Origin: Gemmataceae bacterium
Lineage (GTDB): Bacteria > Planctomycetota > Planctomycetia > Gemmatales > Gemmataceae
Assembly: GCA_035575035.1 (NCBI GenBank)
Contig: DATLYH010000335.1
Span: 1-40,937 of the forward strand
Direction of reading: 5' to 3'
Length of the DNA: 40,937 nucleotides
The translations under genes and the position numbers were made by a program. Positions 6,784 to 40,937 of this stretch are shown here, in pieces; within the stretch, counting starts at the first letter, position 1, and the number at the start of each line of letters is the position of its first letter. The notes under the pieces were generated by a model. It ran no database searches and was not told where the DNA came from. It saw only the letters and a list, made by a program, of their open reading frames with translations.

Positions 6784-6836
6784 CCGCTTGCAGCTTAGTG
6801 CTCGCCTCGCCGAGGCGAGCACTAAGCTGCAAGCGG
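6784..6836. repeat. near-perfect 53-bp palindrome (26-bp arms) between convergent genes; REP-like / bidirectional terminator-like; member of the GCTAAGCYGCAAGYGG family
   Basis: CCGCTTGCAGCTTAGTGCTCGCCTCG c CGAGGCGAGCACTAAGCTGCAAGCGG read directly. It lies between the stop of the 4147..6774 gene (6774) and the stop of the flotillin gene (6849). Confidence 0.8.
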
Positions 6837-6848
6837 CGAAGAAGATGT

Positions 6849-8618
6849 TCACCCCTTGGGCGGCGGCGCGTCGGATTCGTCCTTGGCTGTCGCAACCACC
6901 TGGGGGCCGTCATGGTGCTCCGGCGAGGTCGGGGCAGCCGACCGGCCCTCCGGGGCGAAGCGGGCCAAATACTCGGGCATCTCGATGCCGCCGATGTCCT
7001 TCATCACCTGCATCATCGGCGGCAGCACTCGGGCCATGCTCTGCAAGAAGTGGGCGGTGCTGGTCGTACCGTTGCCGTTGGCCCCGCCCCCTTCCCAGAC
7101 GACCACCTTGTCGAACTTGATGTTGGAGATGGCCTGGGCCGCCGTCTGGGCCAGGGTATCGAGGTGCTCCAGCATCAGCATCTGGAAGGCCTGGGAAGCG
7201 CCGCCGCAGGCCTCGATGATCCGCCGCAGGCCTTCCCCCTTCTTGGCCAGGATCTCATACTGGCCGCGGGCCTCGGCCTCGAGCTTGGCGTAGATGGCCT
7301 GGGCCTGGCCCTCCGCCTCGATACGGCGTTTTTCGGCTTCGGCTTCGGCCTCGACGATGATCTTAGCCTTCTCCGCCTTGGCCGGCGCTTCCAACGCCGC
7401 CCGCCGCTCCGCCTCGACGCGCTCGGCCTGGGCCAGAGCGGCCTTGGTCAGGGCGCGGTTCTGCGCCTCCTGCACGGCGGCCTCGGCCTCGCGCTTGCGG
7501 GTCTCGCCGAGCTGGTACGCCTCGGCCTGTTTGACCTGGAGCTGGGCCTGGGCCAGGGCGATCTTGGCCTGGGCCTCGGCCTCGCCGGCGACCGCCTTGG
7601 CGTTGGCCTCGGCAATGGCGATGCGCATCTGCCGCTCGGCGTCCTTGACCTGGGCCTCGCGCTCGAAAGCCGCGGTCTGCTCGCCGACCTTCTGCTCCTT
7701 TTCCAGCTGAGCGATGCGGACCGCCTGCTGTCGCTGGACTTCCTTGATCTGGGCCTCGCGCTCCATCGCCGCCGTCTGTTCGCCGACCTTCTGTTCCTTT
7801 TCCAACTGGGCAATGCGGACCGTCTGGTCGCGCAGGGCCTCGCGGGTGCCGATCTCGCGCACCTTGACGGCGTTGGCCACCTGGATGGCCTTCTCACGCT
7901 CGGCCTCGGCGACGCCGATCTGGCCGAGCTTCTCCTGCTCGGCCACCTCGACCTTGGCTTTCTGGACCGCCTGGCTGGCGGCCTTGCGGCCGATGGCCTC
8001 GATGTAGCCCGACTCGTCGGTGATGTCGGTGATGTTGACGTTGATCAGCACCAGGCCGATCTTCTTCAGCTCCGGCTCCAACGATGTCTGGATGTTGTGC
8101 AGAAACTTGTCGCGGTCGCGGTTGATCTCCTCGATGTGCATCGAGGCGATCACCTGGCGGAGTTGGCCGAAGATGATGTCGCCGGCCTGCTGCTTGATCT
8201 CGTCCGTGCTCAAGTGGAGCAGGCGGATGGCGGCATTGTTCATCGTCTCGGGGTCGGTGCCGATGCCGACGGTGAAGACGCTGGGGACGTTGACGCGGAT
8301 GTTCTCGGCCGACAGGGCCCCTTTGAGGGGGATCTCGATCTGGATCGGTTCCAGACTGAGATAGGCGTATTCCTGGATGAGCGGCCAGACGAAGGCCGCT
8401 CCGCCGTGAATGGGCCGCGACGCCATGCCGCCGCCCACCTTGCCGGAGATGACCAGGATCTGGTCGGGCCGGCACCGCTTGTAGCGGTTCATGAGCAGCA
8501 GCAGAAAACTGAAGAAGACGAGGGCCAGGAAGACCGGCACCAGCACCAGCCAGGGGAAATCGAAATCGGACGCGGGCGCCCCGGGCCGGCCCTGGGCAAG
8601 CAACAAGGTGTTAAGCAT
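6849..8618 (-). CDS. flotillin (SPFH/band-7 family, FloT/YqiK-like) with long coiled-coil (EA-rich) region
   Basis: N-terminal TM, then an SPFH domain (PDQILVISG...RPIHGGAAFVWPLIQEYAYLSLEPIQIEIPLKGALSAENIRVNV...IGTDPE), followed by about 250 aa of E/A/K/Q heptad-like repeats. Its ATG at 8616-8618 overlaps the stop of the upstream NfeD gene. Confidence 0.85.
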   Translation of the reverse strand: MLNTLLLAQGRPGAPASDFDFPWLVLVPVFLALVFFSFLLLLMNRYKRCRPDQILVISGKVGGGMASRPIHGGAAFVWPLIQEYAYLSLEPIQIEIPLKGALSAENIRVNVPSVFTVGIGTDPETMNNAAIRLLHLSTDEIKQQAGDIIFGQLRQVIASMHIEEINRDRDKFLHNIQTSLEPELKKIGLVLINVNITDITDESGYIEAIGRKAASQAVQKAKVEVAEQEKLGQIGVAEAEREKAIQVANAVKVREIGTREALRDQTVRIAQLEKEQKVGEQTAAMEREAQIKEVQRQQAVRIAQLEKEQKVGEQTAAFEREAQVKDAERQMRIAIAEANAKAVAGEAEAQAKIALAQAQLQVKQAEAYQLGETRKREAEAAVQEAQNRALTKAALAQAERVEAERRAALEAPAKAEKAKIIVEAEAEAEKRRIEAEGQAQAIYAKLEAEARGQYEILAKKGEGLRRIIEACGGASQAFQMLMLEHLDTLAQTAAQAISNIKFDKVVVWEGGGANGNGTTSTAHFLQSMARVLPPMMQVMKDIGGIEMPEYLARFAPEGRSAAPTSPEHHDGPQVVATAKDESDAPPPKG

Positions 8619-14272: not shown

Positions 14273-14762
14273 GAGACCCTTCCCTGCTGCCGTGACCCGC
14301 CGCCTGCCGGATGCGATACGTGATGGACAAGATATGGGCGGTTAGGAGTCACTTTCTTTATGGCCGCTGGGAAGGGGGCTGTCAAACCAGCCGGGCCGGA
14401 AACGGCGTGCGGGAGCGGCACCGGCGCAGACAAGTACCGCGCCGATGTCCCGTTCGCTATTTTGCCTACGCTCGAACGGGCCGCGGGATGGAGGAAGCGG
14501 CCCGCGACACGCCGCATCAACGGCAAGTTCGGCAGAAATCGCGCAGCATCACCGCAGTGATGCGACGCTCCGCAATGAGATGATCGGCGGTTCGGTTCCG
14601 GAGGACAGTCGGTTCTGCGCCAAGGGCGGTAGTGATGGCGCGGGTTTTCGCTTGATTGTCCACCGCAACCAGCGGTAATGTCAGTGATGGTGGCCGTCCG
14701 AACGGTCGGAACGGTTCATTCGATAGCTCGCGCCGACGCAAGGTAATGACCAGTTCGGCTAG

Positions 14763-15221
14763 GTGCTCGACATATGCGAGATCGCCATGGATAGTGCATC
14801 CCGGCCTTCGATCTGGTTCTATATTGGCATCGCCAGTCTTACGCTTGCTCTCGGGCCGTTCTTTCTCGGTTTTGTCGCCATCTTGACTTGGGGGCTGATC
14901 TTCATTCCGGTTGTCGCTCTGACCTGGTTTGGGCCATTGTTGCTGCTGCACTGGGTTCTCTGGGGACGGGCTTTCTCTTGGCAAGTGTCTGAAGGAGCCG
15001 AAGGCGTGGCGGGTGGAGTGGCCGATGCTCTTGTGAAGCGTCCAACGGTCCCGTTGCGGGTGTTACGACTTGCCGGCGGCGTCATCGTCATCATCGGCAC
15101 TGTCTTATATTACCTGAGCCTGCTTGGTGTGTTTAACGCGAGTACTGAGCCGCGGTTTTTGCATATCGAGTCGCGGTCTGACGGTACGGTGTGGATCCGC
15201 AATGTGACCTTGGACAAATAA
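14763..15221 (+). CDS. hypothetical small membrane protein (3 predicted TM helices) encoded in a low-GC, atypical-codon-usage islet
   Basis: The ORF has T-ending codon bias unlike its neighbours and hydrophobic helices (IWFYIGIASLTLALGPFFLGFVAILTWGLIFIPVVALTWFGPLLLLHWVLW, VIVIIGTVLYYLSLLGVF). No recognisable domain was found. Confidence 0.4.
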   Translation: MLDICEIAMDSASRPSIWFYIGIASLTLALGPFFLGFVAILTWGLIFIPVVALTWFGPLLLLHWVLWGRAFSWQVSEGAEGVAGGVADALVKRPTVPLRVLRLAGGVIVIIGTVLYYLSLLGVFNASTEPRFLHIESRSDGTVWIRNVTLDK

Positions 15222-15248
15222 GATCGCGGAAAGATAATCGCGACAGGG

Positions 15249-15359
15249 GGAAGAGGACGCCATGAGGCCGAATCCGATGCACCCTCAAGCAATTCCCCAT
15301 CGTCGGCTGCTCCACCACCATGCTATCGGAGGCTCTCTAGTGCCGTCGATGCCGGCCTA
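15249..15359 (+). repeat. copy 1 of a ~110-bp dispersed direct repeat (second copy at 23147..23256, ~97% identical)
   Basis: GGAAGAGGACGCCATGAGGCCGAATCCGATGCACCCTCAAGCAATTCCCCATCGTCGGCTGCTCCACCACCATGCTATCGGAGGCTCTCTAGTGCCGTCGATGCCGGCCTA. It differs from copy 2 by 3 substitutions. Confidence 0.9.
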
Positions 15360-15547
15360 CGCTTGCCCGACCAGCCGCCACGACTTCACCCAGGCCCAAC
15401 TCTGCGCCATCCGGGCCTTGAAGACCTTCCTCACGACCGACTCCCGCGCCGTCGCCCTCCCGGGCGACCTTCCCGAGCGGCACGCCGACCGGGGGCGGCC
15501 CCTGATGCCCCACTACGCCACCCTGGGCCCGGCCGAGCCGCGGCTGC

Positions 15548-15901
15548 TCACAAAGGGGGCTTCCGCAAGCGCCCGCGGAAAGCCTGCCGCCACGCCTCCC
15601 GCCCCGACGCCCGCCGCAACTGTTTGTCGAGGCGGGGATGGGCATAGTCCTTGGGCAGCACGCCCTTGAGGGAGGGGTTGTCCCGTTCGATGGTGAGCAT
15701 GGCGTCGTCAACGATCTTGCCGATCATCGGGTCTTTCGCACGGTTGCGGAGGTTCGACCAACGGGCCTCGGGCGGCACCCAGAAGACATTGACGGCCCGG
15801 TACTCGTCCGGGTCTTCCGGGTCGGCTCCCTGCGCCCGCTCGGCTTGGAGTCTGGCGTGCTGCCCCTCAAAGGCGTCCAAGATGTACTTGAGGAAGATCA
15901 A
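15548..15901 (-). pseudogene. hsdM: remnant of type I restriction-modification methyltransferase subunit HsdM (N-terminal domain fragment only)
   Basis: Translation [22 protein letters not shown]...[56 protein letters not shown] matches the conserved HsdM N-terminal domain. It begins abruptly right after a terminator hairpin and diverges and terminates about 110 aa in. There is no catalytic (NPPF) domain and no hsdR or hsdS nearby. Confidence 0.6.
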
Positions 15902-15935
15902 GGGGCCTGTCAGGACTATCCCCTGGACAGGCCCC
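15902..15935 (-). terminator. hairpin terminator candidate downstream of BBP7 gene
   Basis: GGGGCCTGTCAGG-actatcc-CCTGGACAGGCCCC sits 37 nt after the stop at 15972. On the minus strand it is followed by TTGATCTT. Confidence 0.4.
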
Positions 15936-15971
15936 GGCTCGTTTTCAGGAACGTTCTTCCCGGGCCGGTGA

Positions 15972-17231
15972 TCAGTACCGCACCTCCACGCCGAAGTTGG
16001 CGCCGTGCGCCCAGAATTCCGAGCGGTTGAACAGGACGGTGGGTCGGGCCGGGCCCATCAGCTGGCCGGTGCCGAAGATCGGGCTTTGCGTCAGGTTCAA
16101 CGCCCGATCGACTTGCTCGCCCGGCCGGATGACATTGTTCCAGTACAGGAAATCGTAGCCGACGTAGGCCTGGACATTGCTCAGGAGGTTCACCCCCAAC
16201 CGGAGCTGGGCCTGCGGCAGCACGGTGAACTGGCCGCGGGTAAACCGCCCCATGTTGGTCGGCTGGGTGAAGACACCGCCGGGGAACGTGCCGGGGGTGG
16301 TAGCGCCCGCGCCGGTCTGAGTAATGGCGCCGCTGATGTTCAGCACCTGGTGCGTCGTACCCAGGGCACACTTGCCGGTCAGGTCCAGCGTGAAGCGGCG
16401 CCAACGGAAGCCGAACCAGGTGCCGAGCTGGCCGCCGAAGAACTGGTTCCGCGTCTCAAAACGATCCCGGGCAATCTCGATGACCGCGGCGGCCGGGTCG
16501 ATCGTGGGATTGAAGAGCCGCAGGTCCTCGTCGAGGTCCATATAGCGGAAGCCGCCCAGCGCCCCCATCGAGAAGCAGGGCATCCGGACCAGGGTCACAC
16601 CGCCGCTGGCCTCAGCACCCCACAGCCGGCTTGACGAGGCAATGGCCACGCCACCGACCAATGGCTCGCCTGGGGCCGGCTCCGAGATCAGCACGGCGTG
16701 CGGAGCCCCGGTAGTCGGGTTAATGAACGGGAAAGCCAGCAACGGCGCGCCGGCCGCGTCCGACTGGATGCGGAACGTGTCGCTCCGCCGCTCCAGGAGG
16801 AAAAGAGTCCCCTCCAGGCCGATCGACCGGTTTTTGTTCAACCAGGAGCCGACCGCAAGACGGCCGCCGGCGAAGCTGCCGTAGTGCAGGTCGCGCTGGC
16901 CGAACAGGATGCGGGTGCCCGGCTGGCCCAGCGCCCCGGGGTCGATGTCGGCGGGATCTCCGACCGTCACCAGCGGCAACGGCAACGGGCCGTCCTTGAC
17001 CCACCACAGCAGGTATTCAGCGCTGGCCCAGACCAGCGGAGGCCGCCCACAGTCGGGGGGGAGGCAGTCTTCCTCCAGCCCCGGCTCCTCGTCCGAGACG
17101 AAGCCGTGCACCGCCCCGGGCTCAAGCCAGCCCTCGGTCAGGGGTGTGCCCGGGTAAGGCACCGGTTGGGCCAGGCTGAGACCTGCACCGGCCAGCAGGG
17201 TGCCCAGCGCGGCGAGAAATCCCTTTCGCAT
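15972..17231 (-). CDS. BBP7-family outer-membrane beta-barrel protein (Planctomycetota-type porin-like)
   Basis: Start trimmed to the ATG at 17229-17231 ([23 protein letters not shown] signal peptide; GAGGAG SD). It has the SAEYLLWW motif, many Gly/aromatic beta-strands and a C-terminal ...FGVEVRY terminal aromatic, typical of the BBP7 family. The track ORF N-terminal extension was rejected. Confidence 0.7.
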
Positions 17232-17516
17232 GGCGTACTCCTCATCCGTGGAAGACCGGCTCCACGATCCATTCCTTGCATCGGCAATCCGACGCGCAAA
17301 ACCGGAGCATCCGTAAAAATTTATCAGCCGGCGCCTGGCCCCGGCCCACGAGTGGCGCGGTGACACGAACAGGAGAAACCAGGTCAAGGGCCTTAGGGCG
17401 CGGGATTGCGCAAGACGGATGGTGCCGGCGAAGGTACTGCCGTCCGACCCGCCCAAGCTGTAGCCGGCCGAACATCCCACGGAGGTGATTCCTAATCCGC
17501 GGTTGCAACCCGGGGG

Positions 17517-17960
17517 TTATCCCTCGTCTTCCTCCGCTACCAGCAGGTTGCCGGTCGGGTCGAAAAATCCCCGACCGTCCGCTTGATAAACGCCGTCTGT
17601 GCTCCGGGCGAGATAACGGCAGAGGGCTTCGGCCTGCTCGGTGGCCGGGCCGCGAAGCACGAACAACTGCCGGGTGCCGATCAGCCGCTCCATCAGGCGA
17701 AGCTGCGCGGGGCCCTCGCCGGTCGCCTCCACCCAGGCCGCCCAGGCGTTCAACTCCCCGCGGATGCCCTCCTCGTCGGCCAGGTAGCGCTCCACGACGG
17801 CTGCGGTCCCATCGATCAGCAGCTCGGCCCGGAACCAGCCCCGGTCGTCGCCCCGGAAATTGCCGCCCGTCTCGCGGCCGAGCGTTTGCAGGAACGCCAG
17901 CAGCGCTGCCGGCGAAGGCTCGACATCGCTTTGGCCAAAGACGCGATACCAGGTGTTCAT
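17517..17960 (-). CDS. hypothetical acidic protein (147 aa), downstream partner of MoxR ATPase
   Basis: Coherent ORF with an ATG start, 24 nt after the MoxR stop. No recognisable motif. Confidence 0.45.
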   Translation of the reverse strand: MNTWYRVFGQSDVEPSPAALLAFLQTLGRETGGNFRGDDRGWFRAELLIDGTAAVVERYLADEEGIRGELNAWAAWVEATGEGPAQLRLMERLIGTRQLFVLRGPATEQAEALCRYLARSTDGVYQADGRGFFDPTGNLLVAEEDEG

Positions 17961-17984
17961 GGTGAACGGGGCGCGGCGGATGCC

Positions 17985-19007
<1,023 letters not shown>

Positions 19008-19090
19008 CGGTGCGGATCCCTCAGGGATGGGTCAAGGAGGCGAGCGTCTCTGCGTGGCCTCTATTGTAGAGGAAATTCGTGGCCGCGCCC

Positions 19091-19708
19091 CTAGCGGTCG
19101 CTTGGCTTGGGCGGCGGCGCCGGCTCGGCGGGGCCTTTCGCGGGCTTCGGTGGAACCGGCTCCGCGGGCGGCGGTGGAATCAGCTTGGGCGGCAGCTCGG
19201 CCGGCGGGGGCGGGAAGACATCGACCTTCGGCGGCGGTGCGAACCGGGTACGCGGGGGCTGCTGCACGACCGGCCGATCCATCGGCCAGGATAATTCCAA
19301 CACGTTGCTGACCACTTCGGCACCGCTGGCCGACGTAACCGGTTTCTCCTCCGAGACAACCACCGCCAGTTTGCCGCCCTGGGCCAGGCCGTTACGCTTC
19401 AGCTGGTAATCCTGGACCACGGCGCGGACCTCGCCCAGGCGGAAGAGGGTGTCGTCGAGGACGCGGTGATTGTAGCTCCGACCGTTGGGGAAGAGGAGAT
19501 TGATATAGTAACTCTTGCCCGGGTTGGGCGGCTTATTCCATTTGCCTTCCAGGGTGACGATGTGAACGCGGCGATCGAGCGGCCGGACCTCGTACAGCGG
19601 CAGGCCGGGGTCGCTCAACTCCAGCCGGGGCGGGTCGGCTGCGTCGCTGCGGACCGCGAACCCCAGGATCGCCGCCAGCGTCAGAGTCAGGGGGAAGAAG
19701 TGCCTCAT
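19091..19708 (-). CDS. secreted hypothetical protein with C-terminal Pro-rich (PPPP/PxP) tail
   Basis: Trimmed to the ATG at 19706-19708 (MRHFFPLTLTLAAILGFAVRSDA signal peptide). The track ORF upstream extension is antisense to leuS. The C-terminus is FPPPPAELPPKLIPPPPAEPVPPKPAKGPAEPAPPPKP. Confidence 0.55.
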   Translation of the reverse strand: MRHFFPLTLTLAAILGFAVRSDAADPPRLELSDPGLPLYEVRPLDRRVHIVTLEGKWNKPPNPGKSYYINLLFPNGRSYNHRVLDDTLFRLGEVRAVVQDYQLKRNGLAQGGKLAVVVSEEKPVTSASGAEVVSNVLELSWPMDRPVVQQPPRTRFAPPPKVDVFPPPPAELPPKLIPPPPAEPVPPKPAKGPAEPAPPPKPSDR

Positions 19709-19957
19709 GGTGCTGTTCTCCGAAGAGGAAGGAATACCCTGCTTCTGTTGACTATAGCGCTCCGCCGGGCCGGAGGCAACGACAGGCGGGAGCGACGGCC
19801 GGTCGGGGAAGGGCCGGCGGGGCCGGCGTTGACGGCCTTTCCGCGGGGGGATAAGTTGAGCAGGATAATGCGGACTCCATTGATCAAACCATGCGAGGAC
19901 GTTTAGCCGCGAGCCGCGGTGGCACTGGCTGTCAGCCGGTGCCACAACATCCCTCTC

Positions 19958-19995
19958 TTCCAAGGGGAGAGGAGATAGGGGTGAGGGGGAACGCG
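19958..19995. repeat. degenerate copy of the GC-rich palindromic element (GGGGAGAGG...GGGGTGAGGGGG) in the leuS 5' UTR
   Basis: CCCTCTCTTCCAAGGGGAGAGGAGATAGGGGTGAGGGGGAAC, compared with the right arm GGGGGAGAGGGGGAGGGGTGAGGGGG of the copy at 36973-36998. Confidence 0.55.
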
Positions 19996-20014
19996 GCTCA
20001 ATCAACGAGAAGCC

Positions 20015-22813
<2,799 letters not shown>

Positions 22814-22848
22814 GTAGAGCCAATCTCCTGACGACGCAGACGTATCGC

Positions 22849-22921
22849 AGCCGAAGCCGCTCGACGGCGGGCACACCACTACCCGAAAGTCGGGCGGCTT
22901 CGGCTACGAGCTGCACCTTTT
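22849..22921 (+). terminator. leuS terminator candidate (12-bp stem with 33-nt loop, then T-run)
   Basis: AGCCGAAGCCGC...GCGGCTTCGGCT followed 12 nt later by CTTTTT. Confidence 0.35.
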
Positions 22922-23146
22922 TCCTGCGAACGCTGTACTTAGCCCGCGGCCAGCTGCGCGCCGAACCGGCGCCGGTACTCCGCCAGGACGGCCAGCTTGC
23001 ACAGCCACTTGTACCACCGCGGCAGATGGGGCCAATAGGGGCTTGATTGGATCAACGGATCATCATGCTTGAATATATATGCCTGCATGCGTTGCTGCTT
23101 GGCGCTGCGTCAGTGTGTGCTATCATGAGAAGACCCGGGAGCGTCG

Positions 23147-23256
23147 GAAGAGGACGCCATGAGGCCGAATCCGATGCACCCTCAAGCAATTCCCCATCGT
23201 CGACTGCTCCACCACCGTGCTATCGGGGGCTCTCTAGTGCCGTCGATGCCGGCCTA
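23147..23256 (+). repeat. copy 2 of the ~110-bp dispersed direct repeat (see 15249..15359)
   Basis: Near-identical sequence. It is preceded by an AT-richer stretch (23040-23146) and followed by TTTTAGTTTGG. Confidence 0.9.
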
Positions 23257-23501
23257 TTTTAGTTTGGCACCCTGGTTCTGGTTGGCGTTTTGCTGGGCGG
23301 GATAGTTGGACTGCTCACCGCGTCTGCTACGCTTACCCTGTACCTGGTAGCCAGCTTCGCTCGGTTGGGGGGCGTTCTGGGCGGGCCGGTCTGTTCAACT
23401 CCCCTCGGTGGCTACTGCTGGGGTACGGTTGGGGCAGAGCACGTGTTGGCCTCGGCCGAAGCGGTCGTTCGCTGGTTTGTCCAACGGCTGGCCCTCCGGG
23501 G

Positions 23502-23858
23502 CTACCAGGGGGCGTAGTAGTACGGGTAAGGCGAGTAGTAACTCTCGGTGTATGACCACGGCGTGTACGAGTAGCCGCGGTACGAGAACGGGTCGTAAGT
23601 GTGGGCATGCGGCACAAAGTCATGCGGCCCCAACCCGTACCAGGAGAAACTCCCGAACGGCGTGTAAGTCTGGTGCCAGTGGGGCACCACGTCATGGCCG
23701 CCGCGTCCGAAGTAATAGCCGCCGAAATAGCCAGGGTAGTAATACCGGATGGAAGGCCGGCCGAAGCGCCCGCGCGGACCGTGGGCCTCGGCCGACGACG
23801 GGGCCAGGCCGAGCAGGAACGCAGCCGTCAGAGTAGCAGACAAGATGAGGGCTCGCAT
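23502..23858 (-). CDS. small secreted Tyr/His/Pro/Trp-rich protein with internal repeats
   Basis: Signal peptide MRALILSATLTAAFLLGLAPSSAEA. Repeated HDVVPHWHQTYTPFGSFSWY / HDFVPHAHTYDPFSY modules. Ends YYSPYPYYYAPW. Confidence 0.55.
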   Translation of the reverse strand: MRALILSATLTAAFLLGLAPSSAEAHGPRGRFGRPSIRYYYPGYFGGYYFGRGGHDVVPHWHQTYTPFGSFSWYGLGPHDFVPHAHTYDPFSYRGYSYTPWSYTESYYSPYPYYYAPW

Positions 23859-24207
23859 AGTAGGCTCCTATCGTGATGGCCCGCAATGGGGCCGAGCTTA
23901 ACTCTACCTCGGCCAACTTCCTCGTTCGGGATCGGCATCAGCCTGCGCCGAATCGTGGACAGCGGGCAGGGCTGGCCGAGGGTCATCCCCTGCCCGAAAA
24001 AAGAACGTTCGCCGGACCTGAACTTGCGCGGACAGCACAGATGGGGTTGGAACAGCATGGCAGGTCGCAGGATCCTGCCGCAGAGCCCGAAGCGTCCGCG
24101 ACGGGTTGACGGTGCCCGTCGCGGACGTTCCAGGCTCGTAGGAACATCGACCCGTCGCGGACGTTCCGGGCTCTGACAGTACACGCTCCGGGCTCGGACC
24201 CAGGCGC

Positions 24208-25842
24208 TCAGTAATCCTCCAGGCGAAGCTCTTTGCTGTCGGCGTTCTTCCACGCCGCCTGGAGCTCCTGCTCAACCAGCCGGGCAGCGTAGTCCTTCTT
24301 CTGTGCCTTAAGGCTCTCCCGCAGGCCGAAGAGGCAGCGGCCGTTGCGCGGGTGCTTCGCCAGTCCGGCGCGGAAAACCTCTTCCGCCCCGGCCGCGTCG
24401 CCGCTCCCAAGGAGCACCGCCCCGAGCGTCTCTCGCACCGGCATCAACCAGTCCGGCGGCTCGCCGTAATGCAGCGCATCCTCCAGCCGCACCGCCCGGC
24501 GCAGCAAGTTGATTGTCCGGCGCCGGTCGCCCCCGGCCAAGGCCAGCTTGGCGTCCAGGACCGCCGCAGCGATTCCCAGCACGTGCTGGGCCGTGTTCCA
24601 GTCGCTGATCTTCATGTCCTCCGGGATCGTCTTCTTCACCGCTAGGAACTCCTTGCGCTCCTGCCCGGCTTTTTGCACATCACCCTTGGCCAGGTGGGCG
24701 AGGGCGCGAGCGAAGTGCCAGGTAGCCCGGGTGAACGGCCGCTTTTCGCCGGGGGAGGGAGAGGCGAGGATATCGTCCCAGCGGTTAAAGCGGACCAGGA
24801 CCACGGTCGGCGTCACTAGGAAACCCTCGAGCATGGGCATTTCCTCGATGTGCGGCTCGACGTGAGCGGCGAGGCGGTCGGCCGCTTCCTTGGCGGCGGC
24901 GAAGCGGCCCTGGAAGCAGTGGGCTGCGGCCAGGAAGTGGATGTTGTGCGGATAGTACATCAGCCAGTAGACGCCCTGGGTGCCGTGGCTTTTGAAGTAC
25001 GCTTGGTCGGCGGCGATCGCCTCCTCATTAGCCCGGGCGGCTGCGGCGTAGTCGCCGACGCGCATGTAGATGTGCGACGGCATATGCACCAGATGGCCGG
25101 CGGCCGGCACCAGCGTCCGCAGCCGGTCGGCGCAGGCTAGGCCGCGCTCCGGATACGGGGAAGCTTCAATAGCATGGATGTAGTAGTGATTGGCCCCGGG
25201 ATGGTTGGGGTTGCGGCGCAGGACCGACTCCAACGTGGCGAGGAGCTCCGCGGTCCCCTCCGCGGGCTTGCCGTCCGGCGTCCAGAGTTTCCACGGCCGC
25301 AGGTTCATGGCGCTCTCGGCGTAGAGCGTGGCCGCGTCCAGGTCGTCGGGGTACTTGCGGGCCAACTCGCCCATCGCCTCCTTGTAGGCGACGGCCAACT
25401 TCTGCCGGTTGGCGTCCGGGTCGAGGGAGTAGCGCTTCGCCAGCGCCTTGATGTAGTCGCGCTCCGGCTCGGGGGCATTCGACGCCAGGTGAAGAGCCTT
25501 CAGCAGCGCCGCGTTCGCTGCCTTCCACTGCTCGCTGTCGGCGTCGAGGTTGTAGTTCGGCCCCTTGGCCAGCGCCAACCCCCAGTAGGCCATCGCCAGG
25601 TTCGGATCAAGCTCGGCAGCCTGGGCGAACGACCGGGCTGCCTCGTCGTGGTTGAAGGCGTACAGGAGGATCAGTCCCTGGTCGAAGAATTTCTGCGCCA
25701 GGGCATTGCGGGTCGAGACAGGATGGTGATGATTGCCGAGCCCGGCGATCAGCACGGCCTTGCCTTCCGGTTTCGTCGGAGGATGGTCCGCCCGGACGAA
25801 GCCACACAACAGGACCAGCGCCAGAGCCACGCGCACCTTCAT
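24208..25842 (-). CDS. secreted tetratricopeptide-repeat (TPR) protein
   Basis: Signal peptide MKVRVALALVLLCGFVRA, then multiple TPR-like helical pairs (AMAYWGLALAKGPNYNL...; EAAARANEEAIAADQAYFK...). Confidence 0.6.
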   Translation of the reverse strand: MKVRVALALVLLCGFVRADHPPTKPEGKAVLIAGLGNHHHPVSTRNALAQKFFDQGLILLYAFNHDEAARSFAQAAELDPNLAMAYWGLALAKGPNYNLDADSEQWKAANAALLKALHLASNAPEPERDYIKALAKRYSLDPDANRQKLAVAYKEAMGELARKYPDDLDAATLYAESAMNLRPWKLWTPDGKPAEGTAELLATLESVLRRNPNHPGANHYYIHAIEASPYPERGLACADRLRTLVPAAGHLVHMPSHIYMRVGDYAAAARANEEAIAADQAYFKSHGTQGVYWLMYYPHNIHFLAAAHCFQGRFAAAKEAADRLAAHVEPHIEEMPMLEGFLVTPTVVLVRFNRWDDILASPSPGEKRPFTRATWHFARALAHLAKGDVQKAGQERKEFLAVKKTIPEDMKISDWNTAQHVLGIAAAVLDAKLALAGGDRRRTINLLRRAVRLEDALHYGEPPDWLMPVRETLGAVLLGSGDAAGAEEVFRAGLAKHPRNGRCLFGLRESLKAQKKDYAARLVEQELQAAWKNADSKELRLEDY

Positions 25843-25892
25843 GGTTCAGTCCTCCAAGGGTAGGGCGCTAAGCTGCAAGTGGCCAACCAGGA

Positions 25893-27962
25893 TTACTCCT
25901 TGACCGGCAGCCACTGCACCGCGTCGATGATCACATGGCCGTCGGCGCCGTGGTTGCCGACCTCCACGTAGCCGGACTTGCCTGCCGCGAAGCGGAAGAC
26001 GCCCAACGAGATGAAGGCCCCGTCAAGCGGCGGCGCCTTCCGCTGGTTGACCGTCACGACCGTCCGGCCGTCGGCGTGGACAATGGTCACTGGCACATTG
26101 GTGGCGCGGTTGTTGTCAGGCGAGTACGACAGCCGGACCTCGTAACGGCCGGGCCGCGGCAACTCCGGCGTGTAGCGCGCCCACTGCCGGCCTGGGTCCT
26201 TGCCGCCGTCATGGCGGTAGCCGGCGTTGACGAACGGCGTCCGGACGCTGCTTTGGCCGTCGAATCCCTGACGCTGGGCTGCCTCATCATCCACAACAAT
26301 GCCGGGCAGCGCCCGCGAATCGATCGCTCCCGGCCGCGCCGGGCCGGTCCACTCCAGGACCTGCTTGTCCTCCAGGAGCCGTCGGCGCAGCTTCGCGTAA
26401 TCCACCTTCTGGACATCCACGCCTTCCTCAATCGCCAGCACCGCCGCGGTCGCCGCGCTCTGCCCCAGGATGAGAAAGACCGGCTCCATGCGGATCGAGC
26501 CGTAGGCGATGTGCGAGCTGGACACGCAGACCGGCACGAGCAGGTTCGAACACTCCTTCTGCTTCGGCACGATCGCGCGGTAGCTGATCATGTAAGGACC
26601 GCCGGGGCTGACCTGGATGTCCCCCTCGTTCTGCACCCGGCCGTCCGGGGTGACGTAGCGCATGCAGTTGTGCGAGTCCATGTTGTACGACCCCATGCCG
26701 ACCGACTCGGGCGTCGGGCGCTTCCGGCGGCAGTCGAGCTCGGTCATCACGTAGTCGCTCACCATCCGCCGGGCCTCGCGGACGTAGATTTGATGCGGCC
26801 AGTTACCATTGTCGATGAACTCGTCCTTGGCCAGGCCCCACGACTTCATCTGGTCCCGGATCTTCGGCGGCACGCGCGGGTGGTTGGCCAGGGTCCACAT
26901 CAGCCCCTTCTGGTACGACTCATGCTCGCGGATGATCTTCTCGCGCTCGGCGTAGCTTGCCTCAGGGTAGCGGTAGTTCTGACCGATGTAGTCGGTGCTG
27001 ACGGCGCAGTTGTTGTTCGTATCGGTTTTGCCATTGGGCATGCGGTCGATCTTGAGCGGCAGCCGCAGGTCGCCCGCCTCGAAGTTGCGCAGGAGCAGCT
27101 CATACTTCGCCTCGTCGTAGTCGGCCGGCTTGGGGAAGGGGACCCGATTCTCGGGCACGTCGCTCATGCACATGCGGAAGCAGTATGCCTGGACGCGGTG
27201 GTCCCCCTCGCCGTCGGGCGGATAGGGGCCGGGATCGATGCCGTGGAGCAGGCCGCTCTTGGGGTCGCCCGGCTTGACGTAGGGATCCACCTTGACGACG
27301 AAGCGGTGCAGGTGGGTGTTCAGGGCCCGCTGGACGCCATTCAGGGTCTCGCCATAGGTGCGGTTGGCCTCCCGTCCCACGGTGTAGCTTACCCCCGCGG
27401 CGGCCATCAGGTCGCCCTCATAAGTCGCATCGATGAACATCTTCCCGGTGAAGACCTTGCCCGACTCCATGACGATGGCGGTGATCCGCCCGCCATCCTT
27501 CTTGACCCCTTTCCCCGGCGTGCGGTCGAGGCGCTCGCTCAGGACAACGGGGACCTTGTGCTCCTGGAGCATGGCGCGGAAGATCTGCTCGGCGACGTGC
27601 GGCTCGAAGGTCCACATGGCGTCATCGGCGGGGCGATAGAACTTGTACTGCTCGGGCTTCTCGTACTTCCAGGCGGAGGGCTGGTCATAGTGCTTCTTGA
27701 TGCGCTGGTAGAACTCGCGGGCGATGCCGCCAATGACGTTCTTGTTGCCGGAGTCGGTCCAGCCGAGGCCGCCGGAGGAGAGGCCACCGAGGTGCCGGCC
27801 GGGTTCGATCAGGACGACCGACTTGCCCATGCGGGCCGTCTGGATAGCTGCGCTAACGCCGGCCGACGTGCCGCCGTAGATCACTATGTCATACTCGGCG
27901 GCCGTCGCCGGGCCGCCGGACAGAACGGCTAGCAGGGAGAGGACAAGGGGCCGGGGGTGCAT
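25893..27962 (-). CDS. FAD-dependent oxidoreductase (FAD_oxidored/GidA-like fold) with C-terminal beta-sandwich domain; secreted
   Basis: Trimmed to the ATG at 27960-27962 (MHPRPLVLSLLAVLSGGPATAAEYDIVIYGGTSAGVSAAIQTARMG, a dinucleotide-binding GxGxxG motif right after the signal peptide). About 690 aa. Confidence 0.65.
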   Translation of the reverse strand: MHPRPLVLSLLAVLSGGPATAAEYDIVIYGGTSAGVSAAIQTARMGKSVVLIEPGRHLGGLSSGGLGWTDSGNKNVIGGIAREFYQRIKKHYDQPSAWKYEKPEQYKFYRPADDAMWTFEPHVAEQIFRAMLQEHKVPVVLSERLDRTPGKGVKKDGGRITAIVMESGKVFTGKMFIDATYEGDLMAAAGVSYTVGREANRTYGETLNGVQRALNTHLHRFVVKVDPYVKPGDPKSGLLHGIDPGPYPPDGEGDHRVQAYCFRMCMSDVPENRVPFPKPADYDEAKYELLLRNFEAGDLRLPLKIDRMPNGKTDTNNNCAVSTDYIGQNYRYPEASYAEREKIIREHESYQKGLMWTLANHPRVPPKIRDQMKSWGLAKDEFIDNGNWPHQIYVREARRMVSDYVMTELDCRRKRPTPESVGMGSYNMDSHNCMRYVTPDGRVQNEGDIQVSPGGPYMISYRAIVPKQKECSNLLVPVCVSSSHIAYGSIRMEPVFLILGQSAATAAVLAIEEGVDVQKVDYAKLRRRLLEDKQVLEWTGPARPGAIDSRALPGIVVDDEAAQRQGFDGQSSVRTPFVNAGYRHDGGKDPGRQWARYTPELPRPGRYEVRLSYSPDNNRATNVPVTIVHADGRTVVTVNQRKAPPLDGAFISLGVFRFAAGKSGYVEVGNHGADGHVIIDAVQWLPVKE

Positions 27963-28248
27963 GGTGGTCCCTCCAGAGAGCAAGGCCGGGCAGGATCGTT
28001 GCGACTATCCTAAGGAGACCGGGGCCGAGGAGAAAGTGGTCGCCTGGCACGCGGTACTCACCCTTTGATACAAGCCCGGAGCGGCCGCGACCGCTGATGA
28101 CGCTACCCACCACGAATGCTCGGGAAATGATGAGAGATTTTTAATCAAAGAGCACGAGCCCTGGCCCGCTTCGGGTGGTTAAATCTCAAGAGACCCTCTC
28201 CTCCAGTGTGCGGTTGAGGTGCTCGCTCATTTCCACGGCTAACACGCC

Positions 28249-29268
28249 GTGGCCGCATTGAAGCCCGGGAGGGATTTGGCTGTGCTGACCGAAACGCTTG
28301 ACGAATCGGCTTACGGAGTCTGGGCCGTCGCCTTCGGCCTGGTCCTGCTCAGCCTGCTGGCCGGCCTGCTTGGCATCCTTTACCCGCGTCTCTACCGCAC
28401 AAGCCGGCTCTCCGCCGCCGGGGCTCGTCTGCTCCTGGTCCTGGTAATATCCATCCTGGTGATTGGCGGACTGGCGCTGGCCGGCCGGGTGGAAGGCACC
28501 GCGCCCCGCTTCGGGTTATCGCTGGGCGTGGTGGCTGCTGCGGTCGCCGGCCTGCATTGGGCCCTGGCGCCGGCGCCGCCAGAAGGCCGAGGCCGTCTGG
28601 GGGTCGCGCTGGTGACGGCGGGGCTGATGGCGGCCGGCTGGCTGACCTTTCGCTTCGTTGAATTGGCCGAGCCGCCGCCGATGCCGCCGCGCGAGGTAGA
28701 CCTCGGGGCCTTGGTGGAGGTGCATGACGTCCAGGCCTACACCGACCGGGGCACGCCGATCCAACTCTTCAGCCGGGTCGGGGTCGGATCGCCGCCTGAC
28801 GATACCCCCGCCCTGCTGCCTGCGCCGGGCGGTCGGCTACTCAATGGCCGCGCCATCCAGGTTGGCCCGCCGGACCCCCGCACCATCTGCCACGGCTGGA
28901 CATTCTGCGGCGGCCGGTACATGATCGCCGCCCAGGCGGTCGAGCTGATTCTTCAGGAGAACGGCTACCGCCGGGTGGAGGTCCCCCGCTCGGGCGACCT
29001 GATCATTTACTGGGACCGACCTGGGGACGGCGGCCTGATTGTGCACAGCGGCGTGGTCAAGGCGGTGGGGGACGACGGCTACGTCTTAGTGGAGAGCAAG
29101 TGGGGCACCCAGGGCCGCTTCCTCCACGAGCCGAAGATGCAGCCGTACTCTCCCTATTTCGGTTACTTCCGCAGCGAGCGCAAGGGGCATCTCCTCCTCG
29201 GCCTGACCTCTGAGCGGCCTCCTGCCCCGACTGCCAACTCCACCCCCGCCAGCCCGACCGGCGAGTAA
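28249..29268 (+). CDS. membrane-anchored NlpC/P60-like (papain-fold Cys/His) hydrolase-domain protein
   Basis: N-terminal TM helices. C-terminal ICHGWTFCGG...RSGDLIIYWDRPGDGGLIVHSGVV resembles the Cys...PGDLxFF...HVGIY arrangement of NlpC/P60/CHAP domains. The start codon is uncertain (GTG at 28249 or downstream). Confidence 0.4.
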   Translation: MAALKPGRDLAVLTETLDESAYGVWAVAFGLVLLSLLAGLLGILYPRLYRTSRLSAAGARLLLVLVISILVIGGLALAGRVEGTAPRFGLSLGVVAAAVAGLHWALAPAPPEGRGRLGVALVTAGLMAAGWLTFRFVELAEPPPMPPREVDLGALVEVHDVQAYTDRGTPIQLFSRVGVGSPPDDTPALLPAPGGRLLNGRAIQVGPPDPRTICHGWTFCGGRYMIAAQAVELILQENGYRRVEVPRSGDLIIYWDRPGDGGLIVHSGVVKAVGDDGYVLVESKWGTQGRFLHEPKMQPYSPYFGYFRSERKGHLLLGLTSERPPAPTANSTPASPTGE

Positions 29269-29376
29269 CGGACGGCCGCGTCGGACTGTCCCGAACCGTG
29301 CCGCTTTCGCGAGCACTTCCGGCTTCAACCCACAGGGACCTGCAAGTACGGAACTGCCCCCTTGTCCTCTTTTTGT

Positions 29377-29405
29377 TTGACTGTGCGCTTGCGCGGCTGT
29401 AATCT
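29377..29405 (+). promoter_or_regulatory. sigma70-like promoter candidate TTGACT-17nt-TAATCT for the 29512 gene
   Basis: Read directly in the 243-bp intergenic region. It is preceded by CCTCTTTTTGTTTG, a possible T-rich terminator tail of the upstream gene. Confidence 0.4.
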
Positions 29406-29511
29406 TCTCAGTTGGGGGTAATTATCGCAAACTCGAGCTTCCACCTGTGAATAGTCCTAGGCCACCATCCAGTCGCCCCCAGGGATAGTCTCAGCCGATG
29501 AGGGTACGCCC

Positions 29512-31446
29512 ATGATCTACTTTCCCTGTCCCTCTTGCCGCACGATGCTCTGCGCTCCGAAGGAGTGCGTCGGGCGCCCCAGCAAATGCCGTTGGTGTGG
29601 CCACCCGGTTACCATACCGCCCGGCATGCCGCCTGCGAATGCCCCCCAGCAACCCGAGTCGCGGATGCCGGTCCTCCTCAGTGCGCTGGCCGCCTTCGCC
29701 CTGGCTGTTTGCATCGCTGGCGGCCTACTGGGATTGTTTATCTTCCATCATTATTGGAACCCGGGGGCCGGGGATGACGGGGGCGCTGACGCGCCACCGC
29801 AACTGGTATTTCAAACCGAAGAAGGGCCGAGGGAGCGGCTCGCTGCTGTGTCCCACCCGAAGCTTGCTCCTCCGCTTGAGCACCGTTCGGCCCTGGACAA
29901 GGATCGGGACCAGCGCCCGATCGAAGAAGAGTTGATTGCCCCTCCCCCCGCGAAGGAAGCGCCGCCGAGAATTGGGGAGTTGCTACTTCCGCCGAAGGAG
30001 GTGCCCCCACCTCGGACAGAGGAACCCCCACCCTCTCTGCGCAAACAACCGCCGCCGTCCGGGCCAGCGCCGGTGCCTTCGGACCTGCTCGCGGCCCAAC
30101 CGCCGAAACCCCCGGCGTCCCTGCCCGCCCCTGCATCCCCGCCGCGGCGACCGGTGGTTGTCAAACGCCGGAAGGAAACGTCGGACGAGGACCTTCGCAA
30201 ACAGTTGCTGAGGGTGCCCGAGGCTGGGCTGGACCAGATCAACGCCGCCTTCCTCTACGCCCCCCTGCTCCCGTCCCAGCAGCGCCGCGGGCAGCCGTCG
30301 CCACTACCACCGCCCGACTACGGCCGACGATACTTGACAAAGCGGGCAAGGGACCTGAAGCAGGTCGAGCTGGCCTATCTCCCGTGGCGGAAGGAACCCG
30401 ATTGTCAGCTGGGCAAGGAATCGGCCGACCGCCTCCATGTCCTGTCACTCTACTTGCGGAATTGCCTGCGGGCGTCCACACCCGGGGGAGACATCCGTCC
30501 GGACCCGGATCGGCTCCGCAACCTGCTCTTGCAGGATAGCCTGTCTGGAGGGTTCAGTCCGTTACAGAGGCCCGGGCTGGGCGAAATCAAGCCGTCCGAG
30601 TGGCGGCAGCCGGGGGCGGTCCCGGTCCTGGTGCAGTTGCTCCAGCACGAGAACACGCCGATCCGCCTGCTCCTGGTGGAGCTGCTCTCCCAAATCGAGG
30701 GCAAGGAGGCGAGCGTGGCGCTGGCGCAGCGGGCGCTCTTTGACCTTTCCCCCGAGGTGCGGGAAAAGGCCGTGCGGGCCCTCGGCGACCGCCCGGCGGC
30801 CGAGTATCGGCACGTGTTGTTGAACGGTTTCCGCTACCCCTGGCCGCCGGTGGCCGACCATGCTGCTGAAGCGGTGGCAGCACTTGAAGACCGCGATACC
30901 CTCCCCGCCCTGATCGATCTGCTGGCTGAACCGGACCCTCGGCGGCCGATCGCCGTCAAGGACGGGGACCGGGAGGTACTCTTCACGCGAGAACTCGTCC
31001 GCATCAACCACCTGAGCAACTGCATGATCTGCCATGCCCCATCCTTCTCCCGGGACGATCTGGTCCGCGGACGCGTCCCCATCCCGGGCGAGGACCCGCC
31101 CCCGCTGTACTACGCGGAGACCTCGGGACTGTTCGTCCGAGCCGATATAACCTACCTGCGGCAAGATTTCTCCGTTGTCCAACCGGTGACCAATTCCGGG
31201 AAATGGCCGGGCAACCAGCGGTTCGACTACCTGATCCGCACTCGCCCGCTCACAGGCGGCGAGTGGACGCACTTCGAACAGCGCCAGAAAGAGAAGCCGG
31301 GGCCGAACACCTACGAGCAGCGCGAAGCCTTGCTCTTTGCCATCCGGGAACTGACCGGCAAGGACCTGGGCTCCTCTTATGAAGACTGGAAAGGACTCTT
31401 GAAGCCCAAAGTGGTAAAGGAAGAGGACCGCCAGAAAGACGACTGA
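29512..31446 (+). CDS. zinc-ribbon / single-TM / Pro-rich / HEAT-repeat protein with C-terminal CxxCH heme-binding-like motif
   Basis: N-terminus MIYFPCPSCRTMLCAP...CRWCGHPV (double CxxC). TM helix VLLSALAAFALAVCIAGGLLGLFIF. An extended PPxP region. HEAT-like repeats (PVLVQLLQHENTPIRLLLVELLSQ...EVREKAVRALGD...AEAVAALEDRDTLPALIDLL). Then NCMICH near the C-terminal domain. Confidence 0.5.
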   Translation: MIYFPCPSCRTMLCAPKECVGRPSKCRWCGHPVTIPPGMPPANAPQQPESRMPVLLSALAAFALAVCIAGGLLGLFIFHHYWNPGAGDDGGADAPPQLVFQTEEGPRERLAAVSHPKLAPPLEHRSALDKDRDQRPIEEELIAPPPAKEAPPRIGELLLPPKEVPPPRTEEPPPSLRKQPPPSGPAPVPSDLLAAQPPKPPASLPAPASPPRRPVVVKRRKETSDEDLRKQLLRVPEAGLDQINAAFLYAPLLPSQQRRGQPSPLPPPDYGRRYLTKRARDLKQVELAYLPWRKEPDCQLGKESADRLHVLSLYLRNCLRASTPGGDIRPDPDRLRNLLLQDSLSGGFSPLQRPGLGEIKPSEWRQPGAVPVLVQLLQHENTPIRLLLVELLSQIEGKEASVALAQRALFDLSPEVREKAVRALGDRPAAEYRHVLLNGFRYPWPPVADHAAEAVAALEDRDTLPALIDLLAEPDPRRPIAVKDGDREVLFTRELVRINHLSNCMICHAPSFSRDDLVRGRVPIPGEDPPPLYYAETSGLFVRADITYLRQDFSVVQPVTNSGKWPGNQRFDYLIRTRPLTGGEWTHFEQRQKEKPGPNTYEQREALLFAIRELTGKDLGSSYEDWKGLLKPKVVKEEDRQKDD

Positions 31447-31799
31447 TCTAATGCGCTGGGGCGAGGTGGCTTGTTGTTCCAAGAGATCCCTCCACGAAGC
31501 CGACCGCAGGGTTCCTCCACCTTGGAAGAAAACCTGTACATTCCGGGAAAAGGGTAACGCCGATGGCTGGCTGACGACAGCCGGGTAGACGAGCGGACTT
31601 CTCGCGCCCGATGGTCTCTGCCAGGCACACCATCCTGACGCGGCGAGCCAGCCGTGTCCGTGGCGCAACTGCCGGCCGATCGGGCCGCCTGGGGCCGCAA
31701 GGCGTTGCAGCGGGCCTGCCTGGGTGAGGAAGAGCAGGCGGCGACAGGGGCGGTCCAGAGTGGCAATTGCACTGCCCGGCCCGGGGCTTGCTCCGCAGA

Positions 31800-31909
31800 G
31801 TAGCTTGATGTTGGGCTTCCCACGGAAAGTACAGAGGTTTCTCCACTACACGTGGCTTCACTCTCATGCCATGTAGCTTGATGTTGGGCTTCCCACGGAA
31901 AGTACAGAG
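31800..31909. repeat. two copies of a 37-bp direct repeat (GTAGCTTGATGTTGGGCTTCCCACGGAAAGTACAGAG) separated by a 36-bp unique spacer, upstream of the adh promoter
   Basis: Copies at 31800-31836 and 31873-31909, exact. Each contains a small CTTCC-cac-GGAAG hairpin. Confidence 0.85.
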
Positions 31910-35859: not shown

Positions 35860-35862
35860 TCA

Positions 35863-35917
35863 GAGCCGCGAGCGTCAGCGAGCGTTGAGACGCCCCGCTC
35901 GCTGACGCTCGCGGCTC
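35863..35917 (+). other. perfect 22-bp-stem RNA hairpin in the 76-nt spacer between the HemN-like and gcvH-like genes (no U-tract)
   Basis: GAGCCGCGAGCGTCAGCGAGCG-ttgagacgccc-CGCTCGCTGACGCTCGCGGCTC. The stop of the upstream gene is at 35859 and the start of the downstream gene at 35936. Confidence 0.8.
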
Positions 35918-35935
35918 GGACACGGTCTGCACCGA

Positions 35936-40375: not shown

Positions 40376-40937
40376 TCAAGCGGACTCCAGATAGCGCTGC
40401 CGCTCCCAGTCGGTCACCGCCGTTCGGAACAACTCCCATTCCCGGCGGGCCATCTCGACCAGGTGCCGCGCCAGGACCGGGCCGAGCGCCTCTTGCAGCA
40501 CCGTGTCGGCCTCGAACGCAGCGATCCCTTCGGGCAGGGTCCGCGGCAGTGCAGTGCCCCGGACGTAGGCGTCGCCGTCAGTGCGCCCCGGCGGCATCAG
40601 GCGGCGGCGCAGACCATCGAGCGCCGCCGCGGCGCAGCCGGCCAGCAACAGGTAGGGGTTGGCATCAGCGGCGCCGCCCCGGTACTCCAGCCGCCGCTCC
40701 GGCCCGTGCCCCAACACGCGCACCGCTGCCGTGCGATTGTCCACGCCCCAGGTCGCCGTCGTCGGCGCGAACGAGTGCTCGACCAGCCGCTTGTACCCAT
40801 TGACGGTGGTGGATGAAAGGAAGATCAGGCCGGGGAGATGGGCCAGCAGCCCCGCCAGGCAGTGCTCCATCAGCCGGTTGCCGAGTGGGCTATCGCCCCC
40901 CTCACCCCCGACCCCTCTCCCCCCGAGGGGGGAGAGG
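40376..40937 (-). CDS. glutamine synthetase family protein, C-terminal catalytic part only (gene continues beyond window end); contains copy B of the GC-rich palindromic element in-frame
   Basis: IFLSSTTVNGYKRLVEHSFAPTTATWGVDNRTAAVRV...EYRGGAADANPYLLLAG matches GS catalytic-domain C-terminal motifs. The frame stays open upstream through 40937 and encodes ...GGRGVGGEGGDSPLGNRLMEHC.... Confidence 0.75.
   Translation of the reverse strand, partial: LSPLGGRGVGGEGGDSPLGNRLMEHCLAGLLAHLPGLIFLSSTTVNGYKRLVEHSFAPTTATWGVDNRTAAVRVLGHGPERRLEYRGGAADANPYLLLAGCAAAALDGLRRRLMPPGRTDGDAYVRGTALPRTLPEGIAAFEADTVLQEALGPVLARHLVEMARREWELFRTAVTDWERQRYLESA
40896..40937. repeat. GC-rich palindromic element, copy B (truncated by window end): CCCCTCACCCCCGACCCCTCTCCCCCC-gagg-GGGGAGAGG...
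   Basis: The left arm is identical to copy A apart from a 1-nt indel. It lies inside the open reading frame of the GS-like gene on the minus strand. Confidence 0.8.

Follow-up and report, generated by a model that had tools for sequence, protein, structure and literature searches.

Two direct repeats of 111 nt in a Gemmataceae bacterium, whose starts lie 7,897 nt apart, are probably two copies of a rearrangement junction that was duplicated, rather than a functional or mobile unit. Each copy consists of a 101-nt orphan segment, here called X, joined to 10 nt from the interior of an insertion sequence (IS) of the IS5 family; at copy 1 the IS sequence reads on, and at copy 2 it does not. The window analysed is the complete 40,937-nt contig of a short-read metagenome-assembled genome (MAG) carrying NCBI third-party annotation (locus tags VNK04_; LeuS HXG12449.1), and the features in and around the repeats are as follows.

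14763..15221, + strand: hydrophobic ORF of 152 aa without a family, within the lower-GC DNA left of copy 1; JGI contig L046 also has a 152-aa ORF there
15211..15238, + strand: sigma-70-like promoter consensus TGGACA-16-GATAAT, 11 nt upstream of copy 1 in the unrepeated flank (consensus match only)
15249..15349, + strand: X, copy 1; the first 101 nt of the repeat, orphan segment
15350..15359, + strand: TGCCGGCCTA, copy 1; the 10 nt that close the repeat and open the homology to the IS (orfA codons L-P-A-Y)
15350..15619, + strand: internal IS5-family (IS903-like) relic of 270 nt, from about codon 30 of orfA via the frameshift region to the first orfB codons
15620..15901, - strand: N-terminal fragment of hsdM (type I restriction-modification methylase), abutting the IS relic at 15619/15620
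15360..23145, no strand: interval, with the IS relic, hsdM fragment, BBP7 porin, a 147-aa ORF, MoxR-type ATPase, a conserved hypothetical, leuS and a 49-aa ORF
22939..23088, - strand: ORF of 49 codons, hypothetical VNK04_22020, no family, left of copy 2
23099..23126, + strand: sigma-70-like promoter consensus TTGGCG-16-TG-TATCAT, 20 nt upstream of copy 2 in the unrepeated flank (consensus match only)
23146..23246, + strand: X, copy 2; differs from copy 1 at three positions and matches in full the copy-1-locus X of JGI contig L046
23247..23256, + strand: IS-derived stub TGCCGGCCTA, copy 2; the 10 nt after X, where likeness to copy 1 and to the IS family stops

The repeat pair and its edges

Repeat search and pairwise alignment place the copies at 15249-15359 and 23146-23256 on the same strand, with 108 of the 111 positions identical and mismatches at 15306 (G in copy 1, A in copy 2), 15320 (A/G) and 15330 (A/G). 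The two near-identical repeats of about 110 bp in one orientation that had been described from the letters of the contig (the sequence-only reading) are real, and the coordinates then given are correct for copy 1 and one nucleotide late at the start of copy 2 (23147 for 23146). Both edges of the repeat are sharp: similarity stops abruptly on the left and on the right, a sensitive blastn and six-frame tblastn comparison of the 1.6-1.8 kb around each copy detected no further homology between the flanks, and the membrane-like ORFs beside copy 1 and copy 2 are without mutual homology. The 111 nt have no terminal inverted repeats, and no junction microhomology is visible at their edges. The check for target-site duplications that the sequence-only reading had proposed was run, and none is visible at the edges of either copy, the flanks of which share nothing. 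The window holds no third copy on either strand (28-32-mers of the repeat with up to three mismatches; shuffles expect none).

The surroundings of the copies are largely as they had been described. Lower-GC DNA does lie beside each copy, the GC content being 0.56-0.58 to the left of copy 1, though around copy 2 the dip is mild (0.60-0.62). The decayed hsdM noted next to copy 1 is confirmed as an HsdM_N fragment (Pfam HsdM_N, 4e-13; PADLOC MTase_I, 1e-27, residues 1-94), annotated likewise in the MAG; the small minus-strand ORF noted next to copy 2 is VNK04_22020, and the core genes placed in the interval are indeed leuS and a gene for a MoxR-type AAA ATPase. The nearest homologues of LeuS are 82-84% identical and their loci share with the window just the gene upstream of leuS, synteny being otherwise lost; an ancestral copy-2 site free of the repeat was not seen among them. 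The region 14300-15980 as a whole has the appearance of a decayed island between a DUF1573 gene and the BBP7 porin gene, made up of the 152-aa ORF, X, the IS5 relic and the hsdM fragment.

An internal relic of an IS5-family element

The ORF at 15262-15669 matches four small proteins, solely from 'PAYACPTSRHDFTQAQL' onward, and what these represent is the OrfA portion of transposases of the IS5 family (NF033579 positions 32-94; the match to DUF772 is weak). Scanning metagenomes with an alignment of the matched proteins yielded 37 loci, all of which encode a relative of orfA. The DNA homology of these loci to the window starts at 15350 in most of the close ones, at 15331-15347 in others and later in some distant ones, and it ends by 15619. 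Full-length relatives measure 970-1007 bp, are bounded by the inverted repeats (T/G)GCTYTGTTGAA / TTCAACAGAGC(A/C) and carry, after an orfA some 110 codons long, an orfB with DDE_Tnp_1 that overlaps it; target duplications of 9 bp are seen in L005, L009, L023 and L030 (for example ATTTCTTCT in L005 and ACCAGATGT in L009). Ahead of TGCCGGCCTA the relatives have 120-150 nt that take in the inverted repeat, a box of the TATAAT type and codons of the form M..RPMTKSP..LA.EAL..A..AL, a region that is conserved even where OrfA identity has fallen to 41-48%, and conservation also runs across the point occupied by TGCCGGCCTA.

We take this clade to be IS903-like within the IS5 family, in terms of the ISfinder groups. 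The hallmarks of the IS903 group are an IS903-like inverted repeat and a 9-bp target duplication; classical IS903 has one ORF, whereas the relatives described here split it into orfA and orfB. Loci L003-L039 form a coherent clade of IS5-family elements of about 1 kb from soil and sediment, many of whose contigs start or stop at the inverted repeats, and the orfA/orfB overlap at a KGG/AAAGGGGG-type site suggests programmed frameshifting. Elsewhere in the MAG there is at least one further orfA of the family: a 55.5-kb contig carries HXG08404.1 (VNK04_01310), which is 62% identical to the relic and has a normal MTKSP N-terminus.

Set against the IS5 family (NF033579; Pfam DUF772 and DDE_Tnp_1), then, 15350-15619 is homologous to orfA in both DNA and protein, yet what the window holds is an internal relic without inverted repeats, DDE domain or target duplication, and the repeated X is not IS-derived. 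The family inverted repeat TGCTYTGTTGAA, defined from 13 full-length relatives, is not found in the window with up to three mismatches; neither are other IS pieces or a DDE domain, and tblastn with the ORFs of the relatives finds just the orfA relic. An IS5-family end was rejected as an identity for the repeat on the absence of these inverted repeats and of 9-bp target duplications. The earlier suggestion of an IS end was sound in linking the repeat to an insertion sequence, and fails as regards the end, the window having no family inverted repeat and X being unlike the IS.

The X|IS junction

X gives way to the IS at 15349/15350. An exhaustive HMMER search with the 135-residue ORF against 1.84 billion representatives returned 83 relatives, about 70 of which align from query residues 28-31. 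Eight of the 83 were read, among them seven of the nine that start earlier, and most have an N-terminus of the MTKSP type; since an X-like N-terminus occurs in none of the eight, the X-orfA fusion looks lineage-specific. The junction recurs in copy 2, where it is followed by the 10 IS-derived nucleotides of copy 1, and beyond these the copies diverge. Because the 10-mer TGCCGGCCTA is expected by chance 0.11 times per 41-kb window, counting both strands, and stands at copy 2 exactly at this junction, we infer that the two copies share the junction by descent from a time after it had formed, copy 2 deriving from a structure of the copy-1 type or from a third copy since lost.

The orphan segment X

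X begins GGAAGAGGACGCC and opens with a Shine-Dalgarno-like GGAAGAGGA 4 nt before an ATG at 15262, from which the 135-codon ORF (15262-15669) reads on into the IS relic. At copy 2 the corresponding ORF has 48 codons and runs out into unrelated sequence, and X is there in frame with its left flank (ORF 23047-23262). No protein among 5.8 billion clusters matches X in any of its six frames, and HMMER found no homologue of the X peptide among the 1.84 billion representatives. A 22-mer of X gave one chance hit, in a Pyrinomonadaceae MAG, among 185,579 species-representative genomes, a set to which the source MAG does not belong. A 24-mer of the repeat had no hits in JGI metagenomes, a collection that is incomplete, since JGI contig L046 does carry the 24-mer. 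Two scans of viral contigs gave no hits to X, and blastn gave no match among plasmids and phages.

The possibility that X is the diverged native 5' end of the IS was considered and rejected, as four statistical tests were null despite matches by eye (CCGATG..ACC..AAG..TCCCC, GAGGCT). Against the 5' region of the IS family, local alignment of X gave z scores of at most 2.9, mostly near 0, anchored global alignment gave z from about 0 to 2.6, and an nhmmer profile of the region gave no hit; with a protein HMM of the OrfA N-terminus, in any forward frame of X, 667 of 1000 shuffles scored as well. An extension of tblastn alignments into X with L024 and L025 was carried by the downstream homology.

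The two loci in other assemblies

Contigs from independent assemblies carry both loci. In run SRR7882662, Logan contigs match 21692-23175 and 23227-31829 at 100% and, from either direction, break off once they have entered copy 2 by about 30 nt, the behaviour of a k=31 graph at a repeat. ENA contig L045, from another sample, matches 23152-23867 at 99.3%; it shares the right junction and has TGCCGGACTA and the alleles G,G,G. A different sample yielded JGI contig L046, which matches 14682-16035 at 98.5% and so spans the entire copy-1 locus; the repeat at this locus is identical to copy 2 of the window at 111 of 111 positions. L046 also keeps a codon, GCG, after 15445 that the window is without. 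Since assemblies from other samples carry both loci with the same junctions, the arrangement predates the split of these strains. Conservation is no higher in X than around it, the divergence in L046 being 2.7% for X against 1.1% for the flanks. The allele at 15306 is common to both loci across strains, which suggests, on the thin evidence of this one site, either gene conversion between the copies or mis-phasing in the short-read assemblies.

Proposed origin of the repeat

Our working hypothesis is that an IS5-family element of about 1 kb, with orfA and orfB, resided in a decaying restriction-modification island in an ancestor of this Gemmataceae lineage. The element would have lost its left inverted repeat, its promoter and the first 29 or so codons of orfA, and the truncated orfA would have become joined to the unrelated X at 15349/15350; its right side would have been lost at 15619/15620, against the hsdM fragment. 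Later, a stretch starting exactly at X and including the X|IS junction would have been copied 7.9 kb downstream in the same orientation, where just its first 111 nt (X and 10 nt of the IS) remain. The order of these events and the manner of the duplication are what we infer from the anatomy of the two loci, and two routes may be envisaged. One possible route is tandem duplication of a unit of 7,897 nt (15249-23145), after which an illegitimate deletion would have removed almost the entire second copy, such that the left edge of the repeat would be the breakpoint of the duplication and the right edge that of the deletion. Alternatively, a single short patch, templated or captured, may have been inserted downstream of leuS. 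The first route would need two events to account for orientation and spacing as well as for the two sharp edges.

A duplication independent of transposition is suggested by the structure of the unit itself. X is without the family inverted repeat and replaces the conserved N-terminus of OrfA, so that 'X + IS' should not be movable by the transposase of the family, and this, together with the lack of a 9-bp duplication, argues for a non-transpositional event. The copies are long enough for RecA-dependent exchange, and gene conversion between them may have occurred. The sequence-only reading had expected such repeats to drive inversions or deletions of the interval: inversion is not expected from direct repeats, and deletion would remove leuS, which would explain why the arrangement persists.

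Alternative explanations

A doubtful alternative, though not a negligible one, is that both copies are truncated relics of a once-mobile chimeric element, with X as its left end and an IS5-like body, which inserted twice around the leuS region and was each time cut down from the right. The identical left edge at the two loci is what such an element would leave, copy 1 does continue into IS sequence, and a further orfA of the family resides on another contig of the same MAG. However, the start of X, GGAAGAGGACGCC, does not resemble the family inverted repeat TGCTYTGTTGAA; the family transposase should not move an element in which X takes the place of the OrfA N-terminus; no such chimera was seen among the 37 loci or the 83 HMMER hits (8 of the 83 read); the left edges are without a 9-bp target duplication; and at least four events would be needed.

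It is unlikely that X is native to the region downstream of leuS, as the 5' part of a small ORF, for instance, and was copied from there into the IS at locus 1 during the repair of a break, primed by a chance microhomology of 10 nt, TGCCGGCCTA. Excision of a cut-and-paste IS leaves breaks of the kind required, the 10 nt stand exactly at the junction, as in microhomology-mediated joins, and the reading frame shared by X and its left flank at copy 2 would fit a native position. Against this, an identical 10-mer already present within 8 kb is improbable at the chance expectation given above, the ORFs at locus 2 have no homologues and look non-genic, and the left edge at locus 1 would still call for a second illegitimate join.

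We regard it as quite improbable that X is a small mobile or site-specific unit (MITE-like, derived from an IS200/IS605-type element without inverted repeats, or the end of an element of another sort) that inserts by a target resembling TGCCGGCCTA. In its fullest form this explanation would make X the terminus, or the whole, of an undescribed small Gemmataceae element, mobile or targeted by recombination beside TGCCGGCCTA-like sequence, lacking inverted repeats and target duplications, which disrupted the IS5-like element at locus 1; we give that form equally little credence, even if X may be the end of some undescribed element. Two sharp edges, one shared flank and the absence of inverted repeats and target duplications do recall the IS200/IS605 type, the targets of which are 4-5 nt; a target of 10 nt would be far longer. 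Two copies are known, with none in the collections of species genomes, JGI metagenomes, viruses, plasmids and phages scanned, X forms no significant hairpins, and insertion into the IS predicts that the 5' part of the IS should lie to the left of X, where it is absent.

The odds are still poorer that X is a functional expression module, supplying leader, ribosome-binding site (RBS) and start codon, driven by promoters upstream of it and maintained by selection in two places. Promoter-like motifs lie 11 and 20 nt before the copies, the numbers found in the two regions (3 and 2) exceed those expected (0.1 and 0.4), and the Shine-Dalgarno-like sequence precedes ORFs that stay open for 135 and 48 codons; a context of this kind could mean that X is expressed. 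These motifs and the RBS-like start of X are nevertheless probably a coincidence in lower-GC flanks. What lies downstream is a pseudogene fusion in one case and a read-out into unrelated sequence in the other, the X peptide has no homologue in the two protein collections searched, there is no signal of RNA structure, and between strains X varies more than its flanks do.

Lastly, an artefact of metagenome assembly, which might be suspected given that the window is an entire contig of a short-read MAG, is hardly credible, as the junctions recur in four independent assemblies, drawn from three samples or more, and a repeat of 111 nt falls short of the k=141 that the names of some public contigs show (the assembler of the MAG itself is unstated).

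Comparison with known systems

The pair resembles the remnants of tandem segmental duplications, or short templated or captured insertions at illegitimate joins, with which it has in common its direct copies, a spacing equal to the putative unit, sharp non-homologous edges, junk content and the absence of transposition hallmarks; no diagnostic microhomology is seen here, in which it differs from them, and its assignment to this class is presumptive. The strain-level contigs L045 and L046 already carry the repeat.

Several other classes were considered. MITEs and solo IS ends are likewise short, non-coding, repeated and tied to IS debris, and a MITE was rejected for want of terminal inverted repeats and target duplications, and with two copies in the window and none in the collections scanned. 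The attL and attR sites of integrative elements are likewise direct repeats of about 100 nt around a multi-kb segment. They were rejected, as was the att-like site proposed in the sequence-only reading: no integrase family occurs among the scanned interval proteins, ARAGORN finds no tRNA or tmRNA in the window that could serve as a target, and the interval carries leuS and other chromosomal genes. A structured RNA or riboswitch was rejected because no Rfam family is found in X at the gathering threshold (merely noise at E up to 10), nor anywhere in the window, and because its folding does not depart from that of shuffles on either strand (z -0.10 to +0.56). Lastly, the template and variable repeats (TR/VR) of a diversity-generating retroelement were rejected: the three differences (G/A, A/G, A/G) are of mixed direction, copy 1 of L046 equals copy 2 of the window, and the ORFs of 12.5-26 kb showed no sign of a reverse transcriptase.

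Taken as a whole, the sequence-only reading is partly supported, its IS-related debris and its recombination scar fitting the evidence, as does its remark that this is not a simple transposon, and its IS end and att-like site not.

Other repeats in the window

Repeats of other kinds were also observed. Two perfect 37-nt direct repeats, GTAGCTTGATGTTGGGCTTCCCACGGAAAGTACAGAG, with a 36-nt spacer at 31800-31909 form an intergenic, CRISPR-like mini-array, at which a Logan contig breaks. Dispersed G/C-rich palindromic units, GGGGAGAGGGG...CCCCTCTCCCC, resembling REP hairpins, occur in at least three places (36940-37001, 40895-40937 and 19964-19989). The segment 7260-7830 is rich in repeats, with a 99-nt tandem pair at 7629-7826 (85% identical) and several shorter repeats of the GCCTGGGCC type, and may belong to a gene that contains repeats. 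At 6784-6836 there is a perfect palindrome of 26 nt around a 1-nt centre, and further strong hairpins lie at 24081-24175 and 35860-35920.

Implications

We read the repeat as a case of ordinary genome decay: a junction in junk DNA, since duplicated, belonging to a decaying IS/restriction-modification island, with any residual novelty confined to the origin of X. Should X prove to end an element not yet described, it would be of moderate interest to those who study mobile DNA. For those who assemble such genomes, repeats of 111 nt are breakpoints when k is short. In the chromosome they offer a substrate for gene conversion and for unequal crossing-over, by which the 7.9-kb leuS-MoxR-porin segment could be amplified. 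For the organism, the repeat marks a decayed restriction-modification/IS island that adjoins core genes, and the case, although of little biological weight, shows how IS debris and small duplications build up in a planctomycete genome.
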